In this document: piece after piece, positions 7,859 through 45,811 of the stretch
Numbering within the stretch: the stretch's first letter is position 1
Layout of the letters: each line of letters starts with the position of its first letter
Assembly (NCBI GenBank): GCA_034667685.1
Contig: JAXDQU010000034.1
Location: 64,001 to 128,000 of the forward strand
Direction of reading: 5' to 3'
DNA length: 64,000 nt
Source: Thermoplasmata archaeon
GTDB lineage: Archaea > Thermoplasmatota > SW-10-69-26 > JACQPN01 > JAJPHT01
Program-made: the position numbers and the translations under genes
The notes under the pieces: generated by a model
Seen by the model: the letters and a program-made list of their open reading frames with translations, nothing else
What the model was told of the DNA's origin: nothing
The model's database searches: none

Positions 7859-8188
7859 CTATCGCGCGAGGGCCGCGTCGTGCGCGCGCTTCACCCACGC
7901 GGCGAGCGTGCGCGCGGACATGTCCTCGGGCACGATGACCCAGCTTGGCATCGCGCGCGTGCCGGTCTTCGTCTTCTGGCGCCACGTCTTGCCGCCCGCG
8001 GCGAGGAGCGCCTCTCGCTCGGCCTCGTCCGTGAGCTTGAGCAGGAGCTTCCCGCCGTCCCAGACGCCGGCGAACATCGCGCCGTTCTCCGCGAGGAGGC
8101 CGGTGCCGCCGAACATGCGCTTCGACGTCGGCTTCAGACGGACCGAGGCTTTCTCGAGGCGCGCGAGCGACGGGTCAGGTTTCGTCAC
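7859..8188 (-). CDS. TfoX/Sxy N-terminal domain protein
   Basis: KRMFGGTGL..NGAMFA, LLLKL, MPSWVIVPED..LAAWVKRA; GTG start inferred. Confidence 0.85.
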   Translation of the reverse strand: MTKPDPSLARLEKASVRLKPTSKRMFGGTGLLAENGAMFAGVWDGGKLLLKLTDEAEREALLAAGGKTWRQKTKTGTRAMPSWVIVPEDMSARTLAAWVKRAHDAALAR

Positions 8189-39627: not shown

Positions 39628-41088
39628 ATGCCCAAGAAGATGGAGAACTTCTCCGAGTGGTACAACGAGCTCGTCGAGAAGGCCGACCTCATCGACAAGC
39701 GCTATCCCATCAAGGGCATGGACGTCTGGCGCCCGTACGGCCTCTCGGTCATGCGCGCCATCGACCAGGCGATCCGCGACGGCATGGTGCGCACCAAGCA
39801 CCAGGAGGTCGAGTTCCCGCTCCTGATCCCGCAGGGCGAGTTCAACAAGGAGGCCGACCAGATCAAGGGGTTCGGCGGCGAGGTCTACTGGGTGACGAAG
39901 GGCGGCAACAACGACCTGGACATCCCCCTCGTCGTGCGTCCGACCTCCGAGACGGCGATGTATCCGATGTTCGCGCTCTGGGTCCGCTCGCACAAGGACC
40001 TGCCCCTGAAGATCTTCCAGATCGTGAGCGTGTTCCGCTACGAGACCAAGCAGACCCGGTCCTTCATCCGCGTGCGGCAGATCCACTTCTTCGAGGCGCA
40101 CACCGCGCACGCCGACTACGAGGACGCGGAGCGCCAGATCCTCGAGGACCTGGAGCTGACGGCCGCGCTCTGCGAGAAGCTCTGCCTGCCCTACTCGCTC
40201 TCGAAGCGACCCGACTGGGACAAGTTCCCCGGCGCGCACTACACGGTGGCCGCCGACGCGATGCTGCCGGAGCTCAAGACGCTCCAGATCGCCACGCACC
40301 ACCACTACAAGGACAACTTCGCCAAGGCGTACGACATCAAGTACGAGAACGCCGCGGGCGAGCACGTCTTCGCCCACCAGACCACCTACGGCATCAGCGA
40401 GCGCATCCTGGGCGCCGTCGTCGCGGTCCACGGCGACGACAAGGGCCTGATGCTGCCCCCCGCCGTCGCGCCCTGGCAGGCCGTCGTCGTCCCCATCCTC
40501 TTCAAGGGCAAGGAGGGCGGCGTCGTCGAGGCCGCGAACGCCCTGGCCGACAAGATGCGCGCCGCCGGCTTCCGCGTCCACGTCGACGACCGCGACGAGA
40601 CGGCCGGCTTCAAGTTCAACGACTGGGAGATGCGCGGCGTCCCCATCCGCATCGAGCTGGGACCCAAGGACATGGAAAAGGGCCAGTGCGTCATGGTCCG
40701 CCGCGACAACGGCGCCAAGTCGTTCGTCGCGCAGGCCGACGCCGCGAAGGGCCTCGCCGAGACGCTCGCCTCCTACGCCGAAGGGCTCAAGGAGCGCGCG
40801 TACGCCACGCTCACCCAGAACGTCCACGACGTCAAGACCAGCGAGGAAGCCAAGAAGACCGTCGGCATCGCCCGCGCCGGCTGGTGCGGCAGCGACGAAT
40901 GCGGCCTTGCCATCCAGACCGCCACCGAGAAGACGCTCCTGGGCGTCCCCATCGACGTCGCCTTCCCCAGCTTCCAGCAGCAGGAGCACCACAAGCGGCT
41001 GGTCCTGCCCGGGCGCGGGTTCAGCGGACACTGCGCTGCTTGTGGGAAGGCGACGCACACGCCGGTGCTGATCGCGAAGACCTACTGA
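39628..41088 (+). CDS. proS: Proline-tRNA ligase (archaeal/eukaryotic type)
   Basis: FSEWYNE, RPTSET, FRYETKQTRSFIR, QTTYGISER, HGDDKGL.LPP, GVPIRIELGP, C-terminal AKTY. Confidence 0.98.
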   Translation: MPKKMENFSEWYNELVEKADLIDKRYPIKGMDVWRPYGLSVMRAIDQAIRDGMVRTKHQEVEFPLLIPQGEFNKEADQIKGFGGEVYWVTKGGNNDLDIPLVVRPTSETAMYPMFALWVRSHKDLPLKIFQIVSVFRYETKQTRSFIRVRQIHFFEAHTAHADYEDAERQILEDLELTAALCEKLCLPYSLSKRPDWDKFPGAHYTVAADAMLPELKTLQIATHHHYKDNFAKAYDIKYENAAGEHVFAHQTTYGISERILGAVVAVHGDDKGLMLPPAVAPWQAVVVPILFKGKEGGVVEAANALADKMRAAGFRVHVDDRDETAGFKFNDWEMRGVPIRIELGPKDMEKGQCVMVRRDNGAKSFVAQADAAKGLAETLASYAEGLKERAYATLTQNVHDVKTSEEAKKTVGIARAGWCGSDECGLAIQTATEKTLLGVPIDVAFPSFQQQEHHKRLVLPGRGFSGHCAACGKATHTPVLIAKTY

Positions 41089-41165
41089 GCGAGCCATTCT
41101 CTCGAAGCATCCTGTGAACGGGGGGCCCGCGTCGAAGCGTACATGAGAGGGCGCGTGGGTCTTGA

Positions 41166-41181
41166 ATAACTAGGGATTATC
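41166..41181 (+). other. Putative tyrosine-recombinase site, left (ATAACTAGGGATTATC)
   Basis: Exact inverted copy at 44015-44030; ATAA-CTAGGGA-TTAT dyad around an asymmetric 7-bp core; directly abuts the GTG at 41182. Confidence 0.8.
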
Positions 41182-42786
41182 GTGGCCCACCGAGCCTCGT
41201 TCAGCTGGCCCACGTCGCGGCGCGATTTCGAGTCGGAGGATCTTCGCTACACGGACTTCCGCGGCGTCCGGATGTCCCCTGACGACCCTGGGCTCTCCCT
41301 TCACGCGGCCGTGCTCCGTGGCGCCGCGTTCTCCGACTGCGCGTTCTGGAACTCGAAGTTCACGCGCAGCGACTTCAACGAGACCGACATCAGCCGCACG
41401 CGGTTCCAGGAGTGCGCGATGGACTACTTCGAGCTGCAGGATTCCCACGTCGTGGAGAGCCAATTCGTCGGCGGGACGGCGCGAGACGCAGCCATCCTGC
41501 AGTGCCGCGTCTCGGAGTGCGTGTTCACCCGCACCGACTGGTCGGCGTCCAACTGGCACAACAATGAGTTCGAGAGGACGTTGTTCGAGGGCGTGAACCT
41601 CGCCCACTCCTCGGTGGAGCGGAACCGCTTCTACCAGTGCACGTTCCGCGGCTGCGACCTCGCGGACCAGACGTTCATGAGCTGCATCCTCGAAGGGTGC
41701 ACGTTCGAGGACGTGGTGATGGATCTCCTCGTGGTGAAGTCCTGCCCCGGCCTCGAGATGACCGCATTGCGCAACGTCAGGCTCGTGGAGAATGGCCACC
41801 CCATCCCGTCCGAACAGGTCGCGCCGCGCCTGACGGAGCTTCTCTTCGAGCACTTGGAACTGGGCGAAATCGTCGAGGTCGCGTGCCTTGCGGTCGTGCT
41901 CGATCGGATCGACGTGCTGGAGGGGCTGCTCGCGCGCGTGCCCGATGCGCTCCGCATGCAGCCGGTCTCCGCGAGCAACGAAAAGTGGGTGAACCTCTGC
42001 CGCGCGCTCCAGTTCTGGACGCAGAAAGGCAAGCTCGATCCGTACTGGCTCCTGTGGATCTTTCAGGCGCTGCTGGAGCACACGCGCAAGCTCCAGCGGC
42101 AGGGCGAGGCGCCTGACCTGCAGCTGATCCGCGCCGCCACGTCGATCGCGGGCGAGGTGCAGGGTTATCAGAAGGCCATCGGCGAGGCGGCGCTGCTGGC
42201 CCTTCCTCGCGGGCGCATGCTGGATCCCGTGAAGATCACGCTGGAGGTGCCCAACGACATCGACCGCGCGGTCGTGGCGGGTTTCGTGGAGAGGCTTGCG
42301 GAGTCCATCGATTCCCGGATGCCGCCCGCGTTCCGGGCGGGCGCGGCGCAGCCTCCGATCCGGTTCTCCGAAGAGCGTTGGGGAAGCCACTACTTCGACT
42401 TCGAGTCCATCCAGTTGTGGGCCGCGGTGCTGACGGCCGCGTTCTTCCAGGCGGATCGCATCCTCCGACAATCCACCAAGATCATCGACGCAGGCGAAGG
42501 CACGATGCGCTCGACGTTCCGCTTCTTCCGGGCCTTCCACGAGGAGAAGGAGCGGACGCGCGCGCAGAAGACGGCCCTGGAGCACGCCAGCACGCCAACG
42601 GTGCCGGAGCCCGTCTTGGCGCCTGAGCCCGTGGCGAACCATGGGCTTGCCCTCGCCTCGGAGAACGCGTTCCAGGCGATCGCCGAGCGGAACCTCGCCT
42701 CGGGCATCGTGGCCAACGTCGTGATCCCTCCGGACCTGCGCGCCGAGGCGAAGAGGATCGTGCTCTCCATCGAGATCAGGAAATGA
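41182..42786 (+). CDS. Pentapeptide-repeat protein with a large uncharacterised C-terminal region
   Basis: About 170 aa of xxxF/L pentapeptides (GAAFSDCAFWNSKFTRSDFNETDISRTRFQEC...QCTFRGCDL...GCTFEDV). Confidence 0.85.
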   Translation: MAHRASFSWPTSRRDFESEDLRYTDFRGVRMSPDDPGLSLHAAVLRGAAFSDCAFWNSKFTRSDFNETDISRTRFQECAMDYFELQDSHVVESQFVGGTARDAAILQCRVSECVFTRTDWSASNWHNNEFERTLFEGVNLAHSSVERNRFYQCTFRGCDLADQTFMSCILEGCTFEDVVMDLLVVKSCPGLEMTALRNVRLVENGHPIPSEQVAPRLTELLFEHLELGEIVEVACLAVVLDRIDVLEGLLARVPDALRMQPVSASNEKWVNLCRALQFWTQKGKLDPYWLLWIFQALLEHTRKLQRQGEAPDLQLIRAATSIAGEVQGYQKAIGEAALLALPRGRMLDPVKITLEVPNDIDRAVVAGFVERLAESIDSRMPPAFRAGAAQPPIRFSEERWGSHYFDFESIQLWAAVLTAAFFQADRILRQSTKIIDAGEGTMRSTFRFFRAFHEEKERTRAQKTALEHASTPTVPEPVLAPEPVANHGLALASENAFQAIAERNLASGIVANVVIPPDLRAEAKRIVLSIEIRK

Positions 42787-44020
42787 CCTCGCGCCGATAG
42801 ACCGACTCGATCGCGCGGACGCCATCCCGCAGGATCGGGAGCCCGAGCGCGAGGCAGAACCGGAATGCGATGGGGTTTCCCTCCTCTAGGACGTACATGA
42901 CGCTCCCGGGCATTGCTTGGACGCCGTGCTCCTGGAGAACCTTGAACGTGAATGCCTTCTCTTCAGACTCGGTCATGCGCGTGCCCTCGCACACGAGCAT
43001 GGTGAGGACGCCGCTCTGCGTCTTCGTGAAGCGGAGGCCGGGCACATCGAGCATCGCGATGAGGTCCTCGTGGTGCTGGCGGAACCTTGCGACGTTGTGC
43101 TCCCGCGCCGCCGCCACTTCCCGGCCCTCCGGGCTCGAAGGACCGGCGCCAAGCGCGGCGTAGGCCGAAGAAGCCAGCAACGCCTGCAGATAGGACAGGG
43201 ACCCGTTGGAGATCTCGTCGTTCTCGCGGATGTCGTCGGCCCGCTGGATCGACGTGACCGTGTGCGCGAACTTCGCCCCATTGAGGAAGAGCGCCTTCGC
43301 GGGCGATTGCACAAGGATCAGGTTATCCAAGGCGTCGATCCTCACGCTCCCCAGCGCGCGCTCGGGCGAAGGGGCCCAGTCCAGCGCGCCCTGCGAGGCG
43401 TCCAGCACGAGGACCGCGTCCACCTCCTCGCACGCGCGCAACACCCGCTCCAAGGCGCGCGCGGGCCAGAGGACGCCCGTAGGGTAGATCGGATTCGTCG
43501 CGAGCACGACGTCGGGCTTGTCGCGGAGGATCCGGTGGACCAGCGCGCCGACATCCGGAAGTCCGTCCGCCTCCAGCAAGGTCGGGAAGAATGCCTGGTC
43601 GAATCCGAGGATCTCGCAGCTCCCCGACGCCGAGAAGTAGAGCGGCGTCACGAGAAGCGCGGTCTTCGCGTTCCCCTCGCGCAAAGCCAGGAGCGCCTGG
43701 AAGATCGCCTGCGTCCCGCTGCCGTGGAGCGCCACGTTGTCGGAGCCAACGGGGAGCGAAAGGCCATGGATCGGATCGGAAGACATCCACTTCGCGACAT
43801 TCTCGCGCTGCTCCGCCATGTCCATGGGAAACTGATACGGGATCAGATGGGATGGCCGCACCTCGGCCAGCCTGCGCGCGACGAAATCCGGAAGCTGGAT
43901 CGTATCCGCGTCGGCGTCCCAATGGAACGGCTGCTTCGGACGACGCCCGGTGGCGCGCTCATACTGGCCTTCGAGGTCGAAGAACCACTGCGTCTTGTAA
44001 CGGTTGGAGTCCCTGATAAT
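42776..44020 (-). CDS. PLP-dependent aminotransferase, class I/II fold; true start uncertain (GTG 43861, or ATT/ATC inside the recombination site)
   Basis: SGTQAI, TPLYF, TNPIYPTG, VLDAS, SPAKALFLNGAKF (PLP Lys), PGS..Y, FRFC; frame stays open 55 codons upstream of 43861 up to the recombinase stop. Confidence 0.82.
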   Translation of the reverse strand: MIRDSNRYKTQWFFDLEGQYERATGRRPKQPFHWDADADTIQLPDFVARRLAEVRPSHLIPYQFPMDMAEQRENVAKWMSSDPIHGLSLPVGSDNVALHGSGTQAIFQALLALREGNAKTALLVTPLYFSASGSCEILGFDQAFFPTLLEADGLPDVGALVHRILRDKPDVVLATNPIYPTGVLWPARALERVLRACEEVDAVLVLDASQGALDWAPSPERALGSVRIDALDNLILVQSPAKALFLNGAKFAHTVTSIQRADDIRENDEISNGSLSYLQALLASSAYAALGAGPSSPEGREVAAAREHNVARFRQHHEDLIAMLDVPGLRFTKTQSGVLTMLVCEGTRMTESEEKAFTFKVLQEHGVQAMPGSVMYVLEEGNPIAFRFCLALGLPILRDGVRAIESVYRREVIS

Positions 44021-44030
44021 CCCTAGTTAT
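44015..44030 (-). other. Putative tyrosine-recombinase site, right; contains the recombinase stop codon
   Basis: gataatccctagttat is the reverse complement of 41166-41181; TAA at 44027-29 ends the recombinase. Confidence 0.8.
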
Positions 44031-44932
44031 CCCAACATCGCCACCCGATTCCTCGGGTTGCATTTCTCCAGCATGTCGGCCCTCCGGCGCGACGACACCC
44101 AGACGTACAGCTCGGTGGTCTGGATGCTGGCGTGCCCCAGCACGTCCTGGACCGACCTTAGGTCTGCGCCGTTCTCGACGAGGAGCGTGGCGAAGGTGTG
44201 CCGGAGCATGTGGGGTGTGACGCGCCGTCCGATGCCGGCGAGGCGCGCTAGCCGTTTGATGCGGCTTCGGACGCTTTCGGGCGTGCGGCGGCGGTTTGCG
44301 CGGCTGACGAGGAGGGGTCCGCGTGGTCCGGTTTCGGCGAGGGCGTTGCCCAGGAGGGCGCAGACTTCGCTGGAGGAGAGGGGGACGACGCGTTCCCGGG
44401 CGCCCTTGCCGCGGATGCGGACGCTGCACGCGGCGAGGTCGATGTCGTCGTGGTCGATGCGCGTGAGCTCTTCGACGCGGATGCCGGTGGAGGCGAGAAG
44501 CTCCAGGGCCAGGGCGTCTTGGGTGGCGGTGCGGCGCCGGGCGGGCGTGGCGGCGCGGCGGATCTCAGCGTGGGCGGCCCGCAGGAGCGCCTCGAACTCG
44601 TCGCGGGTGAGCGTGCGAGGCAGGCGTCGGCGACCGGCCGTGGCGGGCTTGAAACGGACTTCGGGCGCGGCAGCGAGGTGGCCTTCGCGCAGGAGCCAGG
44701 CGTAGTAGAGCCGGAGCGTGACGCTGCGGCGCCGGAGGGTGGCGACGCGCAGGCCTCGCTGCTGGAGGCCATGCAGGTAGGCGCTCAAGTCGGGGGTGGT
44801 GGCGGCGTCGAGGCCGTGGGGTAGGCGCGCGGCGGCGTCGCGCAAGTCCGAGGCATAGGCGCGGATCGTCTTGGGCGAGAGGTCTCGCTCGGCGCGGATG
44901 GCTTGGAGGAATCGCGTTTGGTTTGCTATCAC
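44027..44932 (-). CDS. XerC/D-like tyrosine recombinase
   Basis: N-terminal LSPKTIRAY.SDL; catalytic R (TGIRVEE), K (GKG), HMLRH, LGH and Y (TTELY) all present. Confidence 0.96.
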   Translation of the reverse strand: MIANQTRFLQAIRAERDLSPKTIRAYASDLRDAAARLPHGLDAATTPDLSAYLHGLQQRGLRVATLRRRSVTLRLYYAWLLREGHLAAAPEVRFKPATAGRRRLPRTLTRDEFEALLRAAHAEIRRAATPARRRTATQDALALELLASTGIRVEELTRIDHDDIDLAACSVRIRGKGARERVVPLSSSEVCALLGNALAETGPRGPLLVSRANRRRTPESVRSRIKRLARLAGIGRRVTPHMLRHTFATLLVENGADLRSVQDVLGHASIQTTELYVWVSSRRRADMLEKCNPRNRVAMLG

Positions 44933-45010: not shown

Positions 45011-45811
45011 TCACGAGTCTTGGAGCCACGCCCGTATCTCTTCGGCGAACCGCCGCGGCTCTTCCAGCTCGGGGAAGTGGCCCGCGTCGGCGAACCGGAC
45101 GATCTTGGCGCGCGGCGCGTGCTTGCGGATTCCTTCGGGGTCGCTGCGGGCGTGCGTGCGGTCCTTCTCGCCCCAGAATGATAGCACGGGGAGGTCGGTC
45201 GCGGGCGGCGGCTCGCTGCGCTCCAGGGCGCGGAACGCGGCGGCGAGCGGGAAGCGGGCGCCGTGGTCGAACGCTTCGACCGCGAGGAGGCCGAACGCGT
45301 CGCCCTGCTCCTTCGTGGGCAGCGCGGCGCGGTACCAGCGCTTGGCGATCTCGGGCGCGCGCACGTAGCCGACCGCGGGGCCCACGAGCGGCGCGCGCAG
45401 GAGGCCATGCGCGTCCACGCGGTCGACCCAGCGCAGCGCGTCGTCCCACGCGGGCGCCTGGATGGTGACGATCCGCGCGACGAGGTCGGGCCGGCGGGCG
45501 GCGACGCGCAGCGCGACGAAGGCGCCGACGCACGGGAGGGCGAGCGTGACGGGGCCGAGGGCGAGCTTGTCGAGGAGCGCGATCGTGGCGTCGGCCTGCG
45601 CGTCGAGCGTCTGGGCGTGGCCGCGGGCGGCGGCGCTGTGGCCGAAGCCGGGCGGCTCGAAGACGACGACGCGGGCGACGGAGCGGAGCGCCACGCAGAG
45701 CGCCGCGTGCTGCTCGAGCACGTTGGGCGGGTCGACGGCGAGGAGCAGCGGCGGGCCCTGGCCCGTCTCGCGCAGCCGCACGCGCCCTTGCGGGATCTGG
45801 ACCTCGCGCAT
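45011..45811 (-). CDS. Alpha/beta-fold hydrolase-like protein
   Basis: ETGQGPPLLL, FEPPGFGHS, RPDLV, WGEKD, DAGHFPELEEP; nucleophile elbow reads PCVGA rather than GxSxG. Confidence 0.8.
   Translation of the reverse strand: MREVQIPQGRVRLRETGQGPPLLLAVDPPNVLEQHAALCVALRSVARVVVFEPPGFGHSAAARGHAQTLDAQADATIALLDKLALGPVTLALPCVGAFVALRVAARRPDLVARIVTIQAPAWDDALRWVDRVDAHGLLRAPLVGPAVGYVRAPEIAKRWYRAALPTKEQGDAFGLLAVEAFDHGARFPLAAAFRALERSEPPPATDLPVLSFWGEKDRTHARSDPEGIRKHAPRAKIVRFADAGHFPELEEPRRFAEEIRAWLQDS

Follow-up and report, generated by a model that had tools for sequence, protein, structure and literature searches.

A putatively invertible gene cassette in a Thermoplasmata archaeon with an aminotransferase frame that opens inside the recombination site

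Introduction

The vpma locus of Mycoplasma agalactiae, to which the vsp and vsa loci are related, carries alternative genes for paralogous surface lipoproteins, with recombination sites in the 5' untranslated regions behind one promoter. As described in PMC2268961, these alternative genes have short recombination sites at their 5' ends, and site-specific inversion by the neighbouring Xer-like recombinase Xer1 chooses the one that is expressed. The locus considered here lies in a 64,000-nucleotide stretch of the genome of a Thermoplasmata archaeon (GCA_034667685.1, contig JAXDQU010000034.1, positions 64,001 to 128,000 of the forward strand; hereafter the window, to which all coordinates refer) and combines a gene for an Xer-like tyrosine recombinase with a segment bounded by two inverted copies of a 16-nt core site, between which a pentapeptide-repeat protein gene and an aminotransferase gene converge (Table 1). 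The aminotransferase frame, which runs without a canonical start up to the recombinase stop codon inside the site, is the main subject of this study.

Other described systems share some of these features. Phages Mu and P1 carry invertible segments of about 3 kb, the G segment inverted by Gin and the C segment inverted by Cin, in which two convergent, alternative gene sets are read from outside. Inversion there relies on a serine invertase and an enhancer and produces tail-fibre variants fused to a constant 5' part, and the site is not known to hold a start codon. The dif sites of the Xer system have the consensus form ATAA, 6-7 nt, TTAT, with short inverted arms. Programmed inversions that alter genes have been sought by a search for repeats of at least 22 bp, at least one of which lies strictly inside a coding sequence (PMC9881135).

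The N-terminus of the aminotransferase

On the minus strand the recombinase reading frame ends with GCG ATG TTG GGA TAA, the TAA occupying 44029-44027, and the sequence continues in the same frame with CTA GGG ATT ATC AGG GAC TCC AAC CGT TAC AAG, the product being LGIIRDSNRYKTQWFFDLEGQYERATGRRPKQPFHWDADADTIQLPDFVARRLAE. From 44026 to 43862 there are 55 sense codons and no ATG, GTG or TTG before the GTG at 43861-43859, from which the frame stays open to its stop at 42776; a listing of open reading frames (ORFs) gives the aminotransferase only from that GTG. A previous sequence-only reading of this DNA had translated the stretch by hand, noted the lack of a canonical start and called the extension protein-like. 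Its translation proved correct on re-reading and the lack of ATG, GTG and TTG was confirmed across the stretch. The near-cognate codons offered by the site are ATT at 44020-44018 and ATC at 44017-44015. Openness alone is no proof of coding, as the genome has a GC content of 71% and such open stretches are not rare: in a chance check, the first canonical start came at least 55 codons past the upstream stop in 14% of 1376 long ORFs with high GC at third codon positions.

It is homology, and not openness, that shows the extension to be coding, and we take these codons to form the genuine N-terminal part of a class I aminotransferase, presumably pyridoxal phosphate-dependent. The match to PF00155 (77.9 bits, cut-off 19.7) places residues 68-393 of the 416-residue frame on profile positions 41-347, so that the N-terminal part of the family must lie upstream. 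A first homologue search, of 5.8 billion proteins, gave three non-self relatives. Two of the homologues, P0002 (417 aa), which begins MSED-RYKTQWFFDLEG, and P0004 (413 aa), which begins MADTA-RFKTQWFFDL, align by their first residues to frame residues 4-5, i.e. the ATC at 44017 or the next codon, the initial methionine of P0004 being aligned to the ATC codon itself; they start 4-5 residues ahead of a motif whose counterpart in the window is RYKTQWFFDL. A second search, exhaustive and profile-free, gave 225 relatives at E <= 0.001, and 36 of the 40 best non-self matches begin at positions equivalent to query residues -11 to 16, the exceptions being P0021 (at 27) and P0003, P0006 and P0039 (at 52-69). 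A beginning near the GTG at 43861, which the sequence-only reading had named as the outcome that would speak against the extension, is thus seen in only three of these 40. The alignment that it had proposed shows the N-terminal segment to be conserved, with the motif R[YF]KTQWFFDL...E[YF]...G..P..[PS]..W persisting down to 20% identity.

All 16 family-invariant columns are retained in the window enzyme. Among them is K244, within SPAK, which is unchanged in 11 of 11 rows and nearly so in an alignment of 38; its position suggests that it may be the Schiff-base lysine. An AlphaFold2 model built on a 38-row alignment reaches a mean predicted local distance difference test score (pLDDT) of 96 over the 416-residue frame and 93-98 over residues 11-60, with helices at residues 7-10, 13-26 and 47-54 of the extension. 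In a fold search, complete class I aminotransferases (382-403 aa) match over the entire frame (template-modelling score TMq 0.74-0.80), aspartate and prephenate aminotransferases among them (E 2.5e-21, TMq 0.77-0.80, 403-416 alignment columns). The Pfam score above its cut-off and the full-length fold match place the protein among the class I/II aminotransferases (PF00155, fold type I); no named NCBIfam equivalog was reached. The homologue N-termini, the motif and the fold model bear out the earlier impression that the extension is protein-like.

The gene-caller product of this locus, P0001, has 349 aa and starts far downstream. Two homologues, P0003 (370 aa) and P0006 (353 aa), are called near window residues 52-61, like the truncated P0001, and their loci may share the same start-codon problem. 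In a metagenome scan with alignment A1 for the DNA of close aminotransferase homologues, none of the 225 pattern matches was confirmed as a relative; neither a scan for the exact 33-nt sequence of the aminotransferase junction nor a tblastn search of plasmids for DNA of aminotransferase homologues found anything.

The inverted sites and the neighbouring recombinase

The core site ATAACTAGGGATTATC, whose first A is counted as offset 0, occurs in two exact copies in the window, where none is expected (100 shuffles), and has no third copy in the 3.48-Mb genome. It is laid out as an outer arm GATAA, a 7-nt spacer CTAGGGA and an inner arm TTATC, a form that would fit a dif-like site with short inverted arms around a 7-nt spacer. 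The pentapeptide and aminotransferase genes each begin at a site and have the same frame relative to it, the site being read as A, TAA, CTA, GGG, ATT, ATC and continuing with GTG GCC in the former and AGG GAC in the latter.

The neighbouring protein scores 130.3 bits against PF00589 (cut-off 27.1) and 55.5 bits against PF02899 (cut-off 22.3), which makes it an Xer-like tyrosine recombinase, and its C-terminal end coincides with that of its homologues. Its best-scoring models are XerC, XerD and XerA, all below the NCBIfam equivalog cut-offs (206.4 vs 335, 203.5 vs 329.6 and 185 vs 220, respectively), and it is not an integron integrase by the corresponding model (97.6 bits, cut-off 265). Residues R152, K176, H241, R244, H267 and Y276 are invariant in three genus members and presumably take the catalytic roles of the R-K-H-x-x-R-H-Y set, by their motif positions. 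In the window an inverted pair of sites brackets a segment and a recombinase adjoins it, which is the arrangement of an inversion switch. The sequence-only reading had overlooked the inverted second site 2.87 kb away and with it the context of an invertible cassette, as well as the loss of a start codon as a serious rival explanation.

Both orientations are found in relatives. In L083 and L084, from two Gallionella genomes, the outer flanks are identical and the interiors swapped, the switch point lying at the site, within a shared 20-mer, TGATGATAACTAGGAATTAT. The bases from offset 15 on remain with the gene in both, so the start codon travels with the cargo gene. The window locus itself is covered by contigs from two runs of two studies, X1, a soil metagenome that is possibly the source sample, and X2. 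The X1 contigs break on both sides of both 16-mers and leave a cassette piece, two flanks and two 44-nt junction pieces in the window orientation, with the depths given in Table 1; a length of 44 nt is that of a word length of 31 across a 16-nt repeat branched on both sides, 31 being what we take the assembly word length to have been. The X2 contigs pass through both sites in the window orientation. At 44015-44020 the X1 and X2 contigs show no other letter, and the sole listed difference is at 41165, just outside the left core, which is A in the window and C in both sets; CATAAC is a common outer arm in relatives. The simplest reading of the breaks and depths would be that both orientations coexist at this locus, the window's being the minority, and we infer that this recombinase flips this segment.

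Table 1. Coordinates of the locus in the window and of the X1 contig pieces that cover it.
Feature	Position	Strand	Remarks
Xer-like tyrosine recombinase gene	44027..44932	-	301 aa, GTG start; stop TAA 44029-44027 inside the core site
Right core site ATAACTAGGGATTATC	44015..44030	-	TAA at offsets 1-3, ATT at 10-12, ATC at 13-15
Left core site, same 16-mer inverted	41166..41181	+	exact match to the right site
Putatively invertible segment, site to site	41166..44030		2865 bp, two convergent cargo genes
Aminotransferase as read here	42776..44017	-	ATC 44017-44015, 413 codons, stop 42778-42776; frame open from 44026
55 codons without canonical start	43862..44026	-	minus-strand translation, homology, fold model
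Pentapeptide-repeat protein gene	41182..42786	+	534 aa; GTG is the first base past the left site (offset 16)
Prolyl-tRNA synthetase (ProRS)-like ORF, archaeal type	39628..41088	+	left outer flank; tentatively named from its translation
Alpha/beta-hydrolase gene	45011..45811	-	upstream of the recombinase, co-directional, 78-nt GC-rich gap
X1 cassette piece	41166-44030		2865 nt, depth 9.6
X1 left flank	ends 41181		depth 7.7
X1 right flank	ends 44015		depth 12.3
X1 left junction piece	41152-41195		44 nt, window orientation, depth 2
X1 right junction piece	44001-44044		44 nt, window orientation, depth 3.5

The segment has a GC content of about 0.61-0.70, against 0.71 for the genome. On its left the ProRS-like ORF ends 77 nt (41089-41165) short of the site. 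The 16S rRNA of this genome is archaeal, with the 3' end GGATCACCTCCT, and TATA-binding protein (TBP) genes are present, the TBP family having matched only the four archaeal control genomes; at G000:C8:82749-83822 there are four consecutive TBP-repeat matches, read as two tandem TBP genes. An Rfam scan of the window gave one tRNA and nothing else, and PADLOC found no match for the three proteins of the locus.

Related loci in Bacteria and Archaea

A scan with the recombinase alignment over one genome per prokaryotic species gave 482 relatives, of which the best 80 loci were kept. According to the record titles their hosts include Alpha- and Betaproteobacteria, Verrucomicrobiota, Acidobacteriota, Actinomycetota, Dethiosulfatarculus and the archaeal genus. 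Among the carriers in culture are Phaeospirillum tilakii KCTC 15012 (L078), Rhodopseudomonas palustris BisB18 (L043), Magnetospirillum sp. LM-5 (L053) and Oleiagrimonas citrea (L030), the cargo of L078 being a pentapeptide protein and an ATP-grasp protein. The site takes the form (G/C)ATAAC-N5-ATTAT(C/G), and the pattern ATAAC-N5-ATTAT is present with at most one mismatch in 69 of the 80 loci. Convergent pairs of sites with the same core, 1.1-6.3 kb apart, number 47 in 44 loci, the window pair not counted. Relative to the first base of the recombinase stop codon, a site lies between 5 nt before and 142 nt after it in 42 of the 80 loci, 14 of which have the recombinase TAA within the site as in the window. 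In 24 of the 80 a site is found 89-389 nt upstream of the recombinase. The recombinase stop codon itself is TAA, TAG or TGA.

With the window included there are 95 site ends (L083 and L084 being one locus seen twice), and 94 of them face an ORF of at least 60 codons. The first canonical start of this ORF lies at offset 13, as ATTATG, in 36 cases, at offset 17 in 22 and at or before offset 31 in 88. Exceptions are the window aminotransferase (169), L028 (40), L054 (39 and 305), L047 (88) and L081 (222). L047, L081 and L054 look like decayed cassettes, L081 having an ATG at offset 13 with the long frame shifted and L047 a truncated AAA_16 gene. Cargo starts fall in all three frames, and several loci with the TAA in the site have their cargo start at offset 17 or 20, which puts it in another frame than that of the recombinase. 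The suggestion of the sequence-only reading that the site may supply the translation start therefore holds for the start position, as the ATTATG of the relatives' inner arm shows. In most bacterial members the spacer is purine-rich and resembles a Shine-Dalgarno (SD) sequence. There is a tendency for offsets -1 and 15 to carry complementary bases (G..C 36, C..G 22, G..G 14; n = 93), which fits short inverted arms GATAA/TTATC around a 7-nt spacer. That the recombinase might force a C at offset 15 was considered and rejected, as 14 site ends pair G at -1 with G at 15.

Some loci depart from the simple pair. L044 has three sites, at 7906(+), 9618(-) and 9835(-), the 23 nt past the site being repeated at 7906(+) and 9835(-), and may represent a three-site, shufflon-like arrangement. 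In L031 and L036 cassettes flank one recombinase gene on both sides, and two copies of the platform occur on one contig (L044 and L054) or in one metagenome-assembled genome (L046 and L055). Lone near-palindromic sites with matches on both strands lie beside the recombinase in L072 (7873-7887), L021 (30-54) and L037 (127-141); no partner was found for them, and they may be empty platforms. For H1, a plasmid-borne recombinase relative from Bradyrhizobium septentrionale, no obvious cassette was found, as judged from annotation only and without a site scan.

Among four genomes of the same genus, recombinase homologues with 48-50% identity are present in two and were not found in the other two (86-88% complete). 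In G002 the recombinase stop is followed by the site GATAACTGGTGATTATG and then by an 824-aa AAA_16 ORF that converges with a 343-aa ORF, with an ATG exactly at the position of the window's ATC. In G003 one contig ends inside GGATAACTTGGGATTAT and another has a second site 92 nt from its end (L013, C10, 1-16 and L012, C43, 93-108), which is the expected effect of inversion heterogeneity on assembly. Bacterial contigs that also end at a site are those of L016, L035, L077, L086 and L092. The chromosomal neighbours of the platform differ between these species: in tblastn, the platform contigs of G002 and G003 gave no match to the window's ProRS, hydrolase or Nudix-like neighbours. At E <= 1e-20 the aminotransferase was found in one of 41 genomes, G000, and in none of the relatives, and the pentapeptide protein in one of five genomes and in none of the relatives.

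Several types of cargo pair recur. The first joins a pentapeptide protein to an aminotransferase, an ATP-grasp protein or a protein without a family (window, L025, L045, L071, L075 and L078), the L025 aminotransferase and the L045 partner being distant homologues of the window enzyme (20-21% identity) with the same start position. The second consists of an AAA_16 protein of about 820 aa and a D-Ala-D-Ala-ligase-like protein, and the third of a CMAS, Methyltransf_11, CDP-alcohol phosphatidyltransferase or lycopene-cyclase-like enzyme and a partner without a Pfam match. PADLOC, run on 12 proteins, gave one match, of a CMAS-type methyltransferase to 'mad2'. In a tree of 45 rows, from which L054 was dropped as too short, the recombinases track host taxa and the cargo types are scattered (26 label changes, with a minimum of 11 and a shuffled mean of 31.5). 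The Rhodopseudomonas loci L022, L082 and L087 have near-identical recombinases, three different cargo pairs and the spacers CCCAA, TACGA and TTGGA, and the homology of their flanks does not reach the sites but ends 60-130 nt outside them, so the unit swapped in this trio is larger than the site-to-site segment. Exchange of cassettes bounded by the sites was dropped as an explanation on account of this end point and of the different spacers of the cassettes.

Translation of the aminotransferase

The reading favoured here is that the neighbouring Xer-like recombinase would flip the 2.87-kb segment between its inverted 16-nt sites and that the compact site of this family does three jobs, often supplying the recombinase stop in its outer arm, in most bacterial members an SD-like element in its spacer, and the cargo start in or just after its inner arm, which moves with the cargo gene at each flip. 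The aminotransferase would then be initiated at the ATC at offset 13, where the family has its ATG, or less likely at the ATT one codon earlier; initiator tRNA would read a near-cognate codon there, and initiation would be inefficient. In the window orientation, ribosomes terminating at the recombinase TAA, 9 nt upstream, may assist, and orientation would then control translation of the aminotransferase. In Haloferax, according to the reinitiation data in PMC10666635, 40-60% of the native level is kept at a distance of 13-14 nt and reinitiation is gone at 22-23 nt. By analogy, reinitiation across the 9-nt gap between TAA and ATC would be plausible. The arguments for initiation at ATC or ATT are an intact and conserved frame that gives a good model and the presence of the allele in contigs of two studies; taken together, with or without help from reinitiation, such near-cognate initiation is given about an even chance of being what happens.

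Several observations weigh against it. The aminotransferase has no canonical start near the site, and none of the 93 other cargo ORFs has an in-frame ATC or ATT start without a canonical one nearby, so non-canonical initiation is not a habit of the family. The G at offset 15 that stands with G at -1 in 14 site ends means that the recombinase does not force an ATC. The X1 depths suggest that the majority orientation may set the aminotransferase beside the ProRS flank, where no ORF ends close to the site, so that reinitiation would be available only in the minority state; and the inverted junctions at this locus are deduced from contig breaks and were not read. The close homologues P0003 and P0006 are, moreover, called from near the window's GTG.

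The strongest rival is that an ancestral ATG in the site has become ATC and that the aminotransferase is untranslated, having been silenced so recently that its frame has not yet decayed. This is a serious possibility, if a lesser one. In its favour, only six of the 94 cargo ORFs, this gene among them, lack a canonical start within 31 nt of the site, and others of the six, in L081 and L047, look broken; it agrees also with the tolerance of the recombinase for G at offset 15, with the far downstream start of P0001 and with the chance persistence of open frames in a GC-rich genome. What speaks against such a loss is the state of the gene, with all 416 codons intact, no invariant column lost out of 16, K244 included, and a confident model over the whole frame, together with the occurrence of the same allele in contigs of two runs from two studies.

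Initiation further downstream, at the GTG at 43861 or the ATG at 43825, would use the first canonical starts of the frame and yield an enzyme of 361 or 349 aa, and the called starts of P0003 and P0006 fall in the corresponding region. It is nonetheless unlikely. Such an enzyme would lack an N-terminal segment with three confidently modelled helices (pLDDT 93-98) and PF00155 positions 1-40, although the great majority of the best homologues begin well upstream of the GTG and the full frame aligns with complete solved aminotransferases; the short homologues may stem from the same gene-calling problem.

That an error of assembly or consensus turned an ATG into the ATC is very improbable: the base does lie in a repeated 16-mer at a branch point of the assembly graph, but contigs of both runs agree on it, even if contigs drop rare variants and a minority ATG is possible. 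Readthrough of the UAA into a recombinase-aminotransferase fusion, which the sequence-only reading had raised, is the least credible of all and not supported. A single TAA does separate two ORFs in one frame, but the shared frame follows from site geometry (TAA at offsets 1-3 and start at offset 13, 12 nt apart), the stops of relatives are TAA, TAG or TGA and range in position from 142 nt ahead of the site to 5 nt within it, their cargo occurs in all three frames, in several loci out of frame with the recombinase, a flip would change the fusion partner, and the recombinase ends where its homologues end.

A broader proposal, which we regard as rather doubtful, is that the 16-17-bp core would be a portable module for recombination and translation common to Bacteria and Archaea, in which the ATC would tie synthesis of the aminotransferase to ribosomes on the recombinase ORF. 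If true, a flip of the cassette would switch translation and not transcription, and the level of one cargo protein would be tied to that of the invertase.

Comparison with known systems

With the window, a widespread recombinase platform gains an archaeal member; a literature search by site strings and gene combinations, which was not exhaustive, found no description of the platform in print. An apparently start-less gene becomes an annotation rule, namely to seek the cargo start in or just past the site; gene callers cut the window aminotransferase short, to 349 aa, and may have done so with P0003 and P0006. The platform appears to flip unrelated pairs, in which enzymes acting on amino acids, lipids or methyl groups are matched with pentapeptide or large NTPase-type partners, and the paired cargo points to a two-state physiology. 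With its conserved arms and embedded translation signals, the compact site is also a candidate part for synthetic switches.

Among integrons, the likeness lies in a tyrosine recombinase beside variable, horizontally exchanged cargo, near-identical recombinases being found with different cargo; unlike integrons, the platform has convergent pairs between inverted sites and no one-directional attC array, and exchange was not bounded by the sites in the one trio available. Its core layout and the best scores of its recombinase against XerC, XerD and XerA models recall the dif/Xer system, from which it differs in the inverted pairs around cargo, the scores below cut-off, the conservation of only about 17 bp and the recombinase's not being found in two of four genus genomes, which are 86-88% complete. 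Gene-altering programmed inversions and intragenic invertons likewise have inversion repeats that overlap coding sequence; they exchange parts of one gene family, whereas whole unrelated genes would be swapped here. Sites of 16-20 bp, being below the 22-bp minimum given for the search in PMC9881135, would mostly have been missed by it. With the G segment of Mu and the C segment of P1 the platform shares an invertible segment of about 3 kb with convergent alternatives, and it differs from them in using a tyrosine recombinase. The platform resembles vpma and Xer1, as far as that system is set out in PMC2268961, in the Xer-like tyrosine recombinase beside the locus and the site-specific inversion at the 5' ends of genes. 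Unlike vpma, the platform holds two unrelated genes placed tail to tail, an enzyme and a pentapeptide or NTPase-type partner. Its site includes the start codon or lies directly beside it, and in many cases the recombinase stop falls there too, in an arrangement that extends over many phyla and an archaeon.

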